Assembly: GCF_003334385.1 (NCBI RefSeq)
Contig: NZ_QOWN01000075.1
DNA from: Escherichia coli
GTDB taxonomy: Bacteria; Pseudomonadota; Gammaproteobacteria; Enterobacterales; Enterobacteriaceae
DNA: 6,926 bases
Direction: 5' to 3' (one strand)
Shown here in pieces: positions 4,092 to 4,353 of this stretch. The translations under genes were made by a program, and so were the position numbers. How positions within the stretch are numbered: the stretch's first letter is position 1; every line of letters starts with the position of its first letter. Below the pieces are notes generated by a model. The model ran no database searches. It saw only the letters and a list, made by a program, of their open reading frames with translations, and was not told the DNA's origin.

Positions 4092-4170
4092 CGATTGCCG
4101 GAATGATCATCAGCTTCATGTGGGGACTTGATGGTAAACATATCGCGCTGGTGCAAAATGGCATCTGAAT

Positions 4171-4279
4171 CGATCGCAGTTTGGCATTCGAATCGATCAT
4201 GATTTGGCATCCATCTCCGATCACAGTTTGGCATCACAATCGATCACGATTTGGCATGCTTCCGATCATTGATTGGCAT
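4171..4279 (+). repeat. IS21-family left-end multiple terminal repeats: five copies of CGATCNNNRTTTGGCAT at about 23-bp spacing, each containing GATC
   Basis: Copies at 4171-4187, 4194-4210, 4218-4234, 4241-4257 and 4263-4279. A partial copy (AAATGGCAT) lies at 4156-4164. Confidence 0.85.
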
Positions 4280-4353
4280 CCTGCCAGTCACTCCGGGAAT
4301 TAACTCTTTTCACCACAGTCTCCATTGCCGTGTTTAAACCAGTGGAGACGTCA

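Follow-up and report, generated by a model that had tools for sequence, protein, structure and literature searches.

In the window, the whole stretch of 6,926 nucleotides of Escherichia coli DNA that was analyzed, a 17-bp repeat occurs five times in regular phase upstream of istA, and inverted copies of it occur downstream of istB. Each full copy contains GATC. The locus raises the questions of what these arrays are, why the left one has more units than the right one, and whether a GATC in every unit connects the element to Dam methylation. Positions 4152-4304 and 6706-6789 are very probably the left and right terminal regions of an ISSso4-like insertion sequence (IS) of the IS21 family. The arrays would then be the repeats bound by the transposase IstA, and GATC would be the core of one of the blocks in each repeat.

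The insertion sequence and its site in yeeR

By BLAST, the window belongs to an E. coli chromosome, and the segment 4100-6926 is 100% identical in at least 10 complete genomes among the top matches listed. The NCBI annotation of an identical locus gives the gene order as agn43, an IS66-family element, a truncated hypothetical gene, a frameshifted istA, istB, and the remainder of the hypothetical gene. The istB gene is labeled there as 'IS21-like element ISSso4 family helper ATPase'. When the flanks are joined without the element, they form an uninterrupted yeeR that is found in more than 2000 genomes. Of 5426 genomes searched by BLAST, 3231 contain related copies of the element, as do 512 plasmids. 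The element and its genes are as follows.

4152-6789, + strand: complete IS21-family element of 2638 bp, probably an ISSso4-like isoform, inserted in yeeR (borders from BLAST and target duplications)
4318-4349, + strand: RNA hairpin (-20.7 kcal/mol, z = -3.8) that buries the ribosome binding site GGAG (4344-4347) of the istA ATG at 4354
4354-5918, + strand: istA, the transposase gene, frameshifted, with in-frame starts at 4354 and 4384 and one A missing after 4740
5935-6690, + strand: istB, the AAA+ helper ATPase gene, directly downstream of istA (NF038214, 257.8 bits against a cut-off of 200)

The independent insertions matched by BLAST all start near 4152 and end near 6789. Clean target duplications of 6-7 bp flank three independent copies (GCGGAG in L002, CTCAGGC in L003, and GTTAACG in L005). 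Because the copies start and end at these positions and clean duplications lie directly outside both termini, the element is placed at 4152-6789. The termini read 5'-TG...CA-3' (TGCAAAATGG... at 4152 and ...GGAATACGCA at 6789) and form imperfect terminal inverted repeats. In the IS21 family, target-site duplications are 4-8 bp long. That of IS5376 is 5 bp (PMC10122671).

Around the window copy itself, a clean target duplication was looked for at 4145-4151 and 6790-6793 and was not found; GCGCTGG stands on the left and GCGG on the right. The empty yeeR site has GCGCTGG joined to AGGCTC, compared with GCGCTGG[IS]GCGGAGGCTC in the window, and the duplication is thus imperfect. The right flank of the window copy, GCGGAG, has the same letters as the target duplication of plasmid copy L002. 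Judged against the intact istA of L002, one A is missing from the window copy. The imperfect duplication and the one-base deletion that frameshifts istA together mark the window copy as old and defective. It cannot produce full-length transposase, and its mobilization would need IstA supplied in trans.

The element is 96.2% identical over its full 2638 bp to a copy in Shigella sonnei that NCBI labels as ISSso4 family, and 99.6% identical to L002. By the ISfinder convention, elements with at least 95% nucleotide identity to the reference element are isoforms, and going by the S. sonnei copy the window element is probably one. The window copy has the same tips, five left units, two right units plus an inner unit, and gene order as ISSso4 of S. 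sonnei and its isoforms in E. coli and on plasmids. It differs from them in its frameshifted istA and its imperfect target duplication.

Both proteins place the element in the IS21 family. The intact IstA of L002 scores 283.6 bits against the NCBIfam model NF033546 (cut-off 160), and istB passes its own curated NCBIfam cut-off. In IstA, Pfam reports the rve domain, which is the DDE core, and Mu-transpos_C_2; it reports no N-terminal helix-turn-helix (HTH) domains. IstA is also distantly related to the IstA of IS5376 (PDB 8b4h and 8q4d) with an E value of about 1e-13 in an alignment that covers the catalytic part only. The earlier note had read the repeats as IS21-family ends. The two proteins and the TG...CA termini bear this out, the true termini at 4152 and 6789, as fixed by target duplications, include the repeats, and the host is E. 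coli, in which Dam is present.

The leader of istA contains the hairpin at 4318-4349, whose arms are preserved in diverged copies. A second in-frame ATG (4384), ten codons downstream of 4354, has its own AGGAG. The hairpin and the dual starts recall the protection against read-through known from IS10 and IS50, as well as the transposase/cointegrase pair of IS21. In IS21, a second in-frame istA start gives a shorter 'cointegrase' isoform that lacks 8 residues (PMC10122671), and the two in-frame ATGs of the window element are similar. A consensus promoter scan of 4100-4450 found no promoter. A candidate picked manually at 4309-4338, TTCACC-18-TTTAAA, is weak (8/12 matches) and lies downstream of the array. 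Transcription from this candidate would start inside the hairpin.

Other features were observed in the neighboring DNA. An IS66-family element (ISEc49-like) occupies 1198-3491, between agn43 and yeeR. Its transposase is split in the window into two open reading frames in different frames (1900-2673 and 2670-3491), whereas the near-identical locus L001 has one 1566-bp gene; the window and L001 differ at 14 gap positions. An 18-bp inverted repeat with 94% complementarity follows the stop of this transposase directly (3497-3564), and three 16-nt direct repeats (CCCGAGTCAGTACTTC-like) with an exact 33-bp spacing precede yeeR (3631-3712).

Organization of the terminal repeats

Each full unit is 17 bp long and is composed of CGATCA (block B), a 4-nt spacer, and TTGGCAT (block A). 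The left array lies inside the element and begins 19 bp from the TG tip. The units at the two ends are listed in order of position.

4152-4164, + strand: left tip TGCAAAATGGCAT, with the cleavage-end TG and the first block A (ATGGCAT)
4171-4187, + strand: left unit 1, CGATCGCAGTTTGGCAT, GATC at 4172
4194-4210, + strand: left unit 2, CGATCATGATTTGGCAT, GATC at 4195
4218-4234, + strand: left unit 3, CGATCACAGTTTGGCAT, GATC at 4219
4241-4257, + strand: left unit 4, CGATCACGATTTGGCAT, GATC at 4242
4263-4279, + strand: left unit 5, CGATCATTGATTGGCAT, GATC at 4264
4284-4304, + strand: inner degenerate left unit, CCAGTCA-CTCC-GGGAATTAAC, homologous to the inner block of the right end
6706-6725, - strand: right inner unit, CGATCA-ACCG-GGAACTTAAC, GATC at 6721
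6731-6747, - strand: right unit 2, CGATCAGCGATTCGCAT, GATC at 6743
6755-6771, - strand: right unit 1, CGATCACGGATTGGCAT, GATC at 6767
6777-6789, - strand: right tip TGCGTATTCCGCT, which keeps the subfamily consensus

The left end reads TGCAAAATGGCAT-CTGAAT-[CGATCG CAGT TTGGCAT]-TCGAAT-[CGATCA TGAT TTGGCAT]-CCATCTC-[CGATCA CAGT TTGGCAT]-CACAAT-[CGATCA CGAT TTGGCAT]-GCTTC-[CGATCA TTGA TTGGCAT]-CCTG-CCAGTCA CTCC GGGAATTAAC. The right end, read inward, is TGCGTATTCCGCT-CTATT-[CGATCA CGGA TTGGCAT]-CGAAGTC-[CGATCA GCGA TTCGCAT]-CCATT-CGATCA ACCG GGAACTTAAC. In a direct-repeat search, the left units are spaced at 23, 24, 23, and 22 bp. The gap between CGATCA and TTGGCAT is always 4 nt, which sets the block centers about 10.5 bp, or one helical turn, apart. 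Between TTGGCAT and the CGATCA that follows, the linker varies from 5 to 7 nt, and the rigid part of the array is therefore the 17-bp register. Counted in the 23-bp register of the IS21 literature, GGCAT blocks number six at the left end (the tip and five units) and three at the right. The left tip adjoins the target duplication in the same way in L002-L005, L008, and L009. The right tip equals the subfamily consensus TGCGTATTCCG and the left tip has diverged to TGCAAAATGGCAT, such that block A differs within one element.

The inner block that closes the array at both ends (4284-4304 and 6706-6725) has the form (C)CAGTCA/CGATCA-N4-GGGAA(T/C)TTAAC. On the left, its GATC has decayed to AGTC, and CGATCA is intact in the relatives from Edwardsiella and Klebsiella indica. 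On the right, the third CGATCA (6720-6725) has no TTGGCAT partner. Judging from its letters, the GGGAAT of this block, which resembles CCGGAAT, the ancestral block A of the subfamily in inverted form, may be a relic or a functional inverted half-site.

The earlier note had described five left repeats of 17 bp at about 23-bp spacing, two or three inverted copies on the right, and a GATC in every copy, with five within about 110 bp on the left. All five left repeats are found, the right end resolves into two full units and a GATCA half-unit, every full copy has its GATC, and the ends are asymmetric in favor of the left, as it had stated. A search with CGATCANNNNTTGGCAT allowing up to three mismatches returned five + strand matches at the left end, with zero or one mismatch each, and two - strand matches at the right end (6755-6771 with no mismatch and 6731-6747 with one). 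Three further matches, each with three mismatches, are scattered elsewhere. The total of 10 compares with 2.2 expected, and none of 200 shuffles reached 10.

All GATC sites of the ends, five on the left within a 96-bp span and three on the right, lie inside block B. Of 500 dinucleotide shuffles of the window, 11 likewise had five GATC in 110 bp, and the count alone is thus only modestly unusual. The phased chain has 6 units, compared with a maximum of 4, seen once, in 300 dinucleotide shuffles. The phasing is the stronger signal of the two. The chain statistic uses a 7-mer with at most one mismatch at a spacing of 20-27 and is reliable for chains of at least 4 units. Counts of 2-3 are near noise (59 of 300 shuffles reach 3), and right-end counts rest on visible identity of the motif.

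A structurally characterized member of the IS21 family, IS5376 of Geobacillus stearothermophilus, serves as a model for these ends. IS21-family ends carry direct repeats (L1-L2 and R1-R2) that are 23 bp apart and have two conserved blocks each, and these blocks are contacted through the major groove by HTH-1 and HTH-2 of IstA (PMC10122671). Integration of IS5376 needs two repeats per end, and an IstA tetramer pairs the ends (PMC10122671). The window element shares with IS5376 an IstA with a DDE domain, IstB, 23-bp direct repeats of two blocks, and the terminal CA (PMC10122671). In contrast, IS5376 has two repeats per end rather than six and three, an IstA of about 400 aa rather than 511 aa, and different block sequences and block gap. 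Block gaps are 4 or 5-7 nt here compared with about 10 bp in IS5376, and the pairing of blocks within one IstA footprint is ambiguous.

By analogy with IS5376, IstA would bind the TTGGCAT and CGATCA blocks through its HTH domains. Each end consists of a tip that carries the TG/CA cleavage dinucleotide and of direct repeats, two blocks in each, that recur about every 23 bp. IstA on the outermost repeats would pair the two ends into a tetrameric transpososome, to which IstB would then bring the target DNA. The surplus inner repeats on the left, just upstream of istA, would most likely load or titrate IstA or autoregulate istA.

Several transposase-binding repeats of unequal number and spacing on the left and right are also found at the ends of phage Mu and Tn7. 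IstA shares its layout of tandem HTH domains, DDE domain, and beta-barrel with MuA and TnsB (PMC10122671; Pfam Mu-transpos_C_2). Mu and Tn7 belong to different families, and the roles of individual sites have been mapped there.

Unit number and block alleles among relatives

To place the unit counts, 80 loci with IstA relatives (43-85% identity, from species genomes) and twelve named or diverged plasmid-borne relatives were surveyed. The array stands upstream of istA across the whole subfamily. Among the 66 loci with at least 230 nt upstream, the left chain has 4 units in 23, 5 units in 28, 6 units in 5, and 7 units in 1. The right chain, counted at 57 loci, has 2 units in 36, 3 units in 18, and 4 units in 3, and the right-end arrays as printed have the same motif as the left units. 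At the 52 loci where both ends were compared, the left exceeds the right in 48, the two are equal in 4, and the right exceeds the left in none. For the subfamily with an IstA of about 510 aa, a count of six left and three right blocks is therefore normal. The earlier note had taken the left count to be higher than expected for the family. This expectation does not hold, since four to five left units are the mode among the 66 relatives. The count is high only relative to the two repeats of IS5376 and to the IS21 prototype, which has three left and two right repeats. The prototype otherwise agrees with the window element in its istA-istB operon, its multiple terminal repeats, and its larger number of repeats on the left.

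The same end plan is found in ISEc12, ISBmu3, ISAs29, ISPpu7-like, ISIde2, and ISRel16, and also in elements of Deinococcus, Enterococcus, Roseomonas, and Pseudosulfitobacter. The six named elements share the tip and bipartite units of 21-23 bp, of which the left end has 3-5 or more and the right end 2-4. They differ in IstA identity (37-52%) and in lineage-specific blocks, and several have extra inverted units inside the left end, of a kind absent from the ISSso4-like element.

Within the closer clade, the copies compared are 74-100% identical and come from S. sonnei, Edwardsiella, two Enterobacter, Klebsiella indica, and E. coli plasmids. The two blocks hardly change among these copies, in contrast to the spacer and linkers, and 45 of their 48 units retain GATC. 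The sixth CGATCA is intact in the Edwardsiella and Klebsiella copies, and Enterobacter copy L006 has one 23-bp unit fewer. A relative at 73% identity has TTCGCAT as its block A and one CAATCA. Outside the left tip of L006 (CP057783.1, an Enterobacter plasmid), at about 2960-3000, approximately six tandem octamers (GTGCAAAA / GTACAAAA) reiterate the tip sequence; slippage and aborted end processing are possibilities for their origin.

The relatives share a tip of the form TGCGTATTCCGG and a block A resembling ATTCCGG, and block B is lineage-specific. Its forms are listed below.

Block B CCGATCAC: many Vibrio, Alteromonas, Colwellia, Shewanella, Ferrimonas, and Idiomarina elements, and the ISSso4 clade
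Block B CCGAACAC: Marinomonas
Block B CCGGACAC: some Vibrio, Alteromonas, and Pseudomonas elements
Block B CCGGCCAC: Alishewanella, Rheinheimera, Maribrevibacterium, and Alicyclobacillus
Block B CGTGACC: Marinobacter, Halomonas, Chromatiales, and Desulfosarcina
Block B CGTGAAC: Aeromonas and ISAs29
Block B CGTGGGCA: Roseomonas

In place of GATC, sister lineages have GAAC, GGAC, GGCC, GGGC, or GTGACC. GATC is therefore one of several alleles that differ at the most variable two positions of a putative recognition block. CGATCA is probably a specificity allele that co-evolves with IstA.

In hosts of the Dam/SeqA/MutH clade, 19 of 33 loci have the phased-GATC allele, compared with 5 of 23 elsewhere (Fisher p = 0.013). 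As evidence for a role of Dam, this association was rejected because clustering of the allele on the IstA tree leaves few independent events, all five exceptions are metagenome-assembled genomes with uncertain binning, the Dam status of the hosts rests on general knowledge, and ISBmu3 is a clear counter-example. In ISBmu3 (L091, on a Burkholderia glumae plasmid), the four direct and four inverted units of the left end all contain GATC, as do two right units. The GATC allele is thus not confined to Dam hosts. The methylome of B. cenocepacia has only CACAG and GTWWAC methylated, and the characterized Burkholderia methylomes are without GATC methylation (PMC7364216). In the left end of ISBmu3, 330 bp upstream of istA, every unit reads TGATCA in a large palindromic array, and many marine relatives have one or two inverted units of this kind.

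A second enterobacterial element of the IS21 family with GATC in each unit is ISEc12, found in E. coli and Klebsiella, whose IstA is 47% identical. On the E. coli plasmid pMS6198B (L090), its four left and two right units contain GGAGATC(A/G), and its block A, AATAAC, is unrelated.

Dam methylation, SeqA, and the surplus left units

In E. coli, Dam will methylate the GATC sites of these ends, since nearly all GATC sites in this host are methylated by Dam (PMC4659465). Whether this regulates the element is a separate matter, and regulation by Dam is unlikely, though far from negligible. Transposition of Tn10, Tn5, Tn903, and IS3 is controlled by hemimethylated GATC (PMC4659465; PMC4265352). By the same principle, methylation of the eight GATC sites could change the affinity of IstA, such that assembly is favored or blocked on the hemimethylated DNA behind the replication fork, as in IS10, IS50, IS903, and IS3. 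This reading is rather improbable. It gains from the presence of GATC in every full unit and its retention in the diverged copies, from the reading of IS21-family blocks in the major groove (PMC10122671), where N6-methyl groups sit, and from the E. coli host. Two further observations are compatible with a Dam connection, namely the enrichment of the allele in Dam-clade hosts and the GATC in each unit of ISEc12 in these hosts, but on the IstA tree the enrichment reduces to a few events. In Dam-clade hosts, GATC is missing from ISAs29 and some Vibrio, Alteromonas, and Aeromonas elements, and ISBmu3 has it in all units in Burkholderia, for which a GATC methylase is not known. Moreover, conservation of GATC is inseparable from conservation of the whole binding block. 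Like IS10/Tn10, IS50/Tn5, IS903, and IS3, the window element has GATC inside sequences that, by analogy, the transposase would bind, and a Dam+ host. In those elements, one or two GATC lie over the transposase promoter and/or the inner end and regulation was shown experimentally (PMC4265352, PMC4659465), whereas the window element has eight GATC and none in the presumed istA promoter region (4265-4400). The 135 bp that separate the array from the annotated istA start are likewise free of GATC. Among the papers searched, none linked the IS21 family to Dam methylation and GATC. Even less likely is sequestration by SeqA, in which the five hemimethylated left GATC, 22-24 bp apart, would conceal the left end, and possibly the istA promoter too, for some time after replication, as at oriC or the dnaA promoter. 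SeqA does sequester GATC clusters at oriC (eleven sites) and at the dnaA promoter (eight sites) (PMC10073500), and five sites within 96 bp would resemble these. The density is nevertheless a by-product of one GATC per repeat copy, GATC is absent altogether from sister elements built in the same way, and the right end has three sites only. Taken together, it is improbable that Dam methylation of the eight sites, directly or through SeqA on the left cluster, gates IstA binding or transpososome assembly. Under the preferred reading of the arrays as IstA-binding repeats, IstA would have to tolerate the methylated sites, and their methylation would be incidental.

The surplus on the left admits another explanation, which is possible but somewhat doubtful as the main one. 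The extra inner repeats could be mainly an operator, where bound IstA represses a weak istA promoter and only the outer two or three units per side enter the transpososome. Two repeats per end suffice for IS5376 integration (PMC10122671), and the surplus is always on the istA-proximal side, as the comparison of both ends shows. Many relatives also have inverted units between the direct array and istA, such as the four direct and four inverted units of ISBmu3, and within the clade the element persists although its unit number changes, with one unit fewer in L006 and the sixth unit decayed in E. coli. The promoter evidence weighs against an operator, as the consensus scan found none and the manual candidate lies downstream of the array and not under it. 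A reading in which the repeats are not IS ends at all, but plasmid-type iterons, another host regulatory array, or chance, deserves almost no credence. Iterons are also phased at about 22 bp and may contain GATC. The array, however, moves with the element to hundreds of different sites, starting at the same distance inside the TG terminus, and is mirrored in inverted form at the other end. Its presence upstream of istA across the subfamily adds to this refutation, and chance is ruled out by the shuffles. The arrays are thus best read as the terminal repeats of the IS.

The repeats are the already known end architecture of a catalogued and very common enterobacterial IS. For annotation, this is a defective IS at 4152-6789 that disrupts yeeR. 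For the subfamily with an IstA of about 510 aa, the ends have 4-7 left and 2-4 right units, which by analogy would be binding units, with lineage-specific alleles that could guide studies of IstA specificity; the two-repeat model of IS5376 is the minimal case. If Dam control were true, ISSso4-like elements and ISEc12 in enterobacteria would transpose preferentially in the window after replication. It would be the first Dam control in the IS21 family and would act through multi-site recognition of the ends rather than through a promoter. Should Dam modulate IstA binding, the IS21 family would be one more among the few with methylation-timed transposons.
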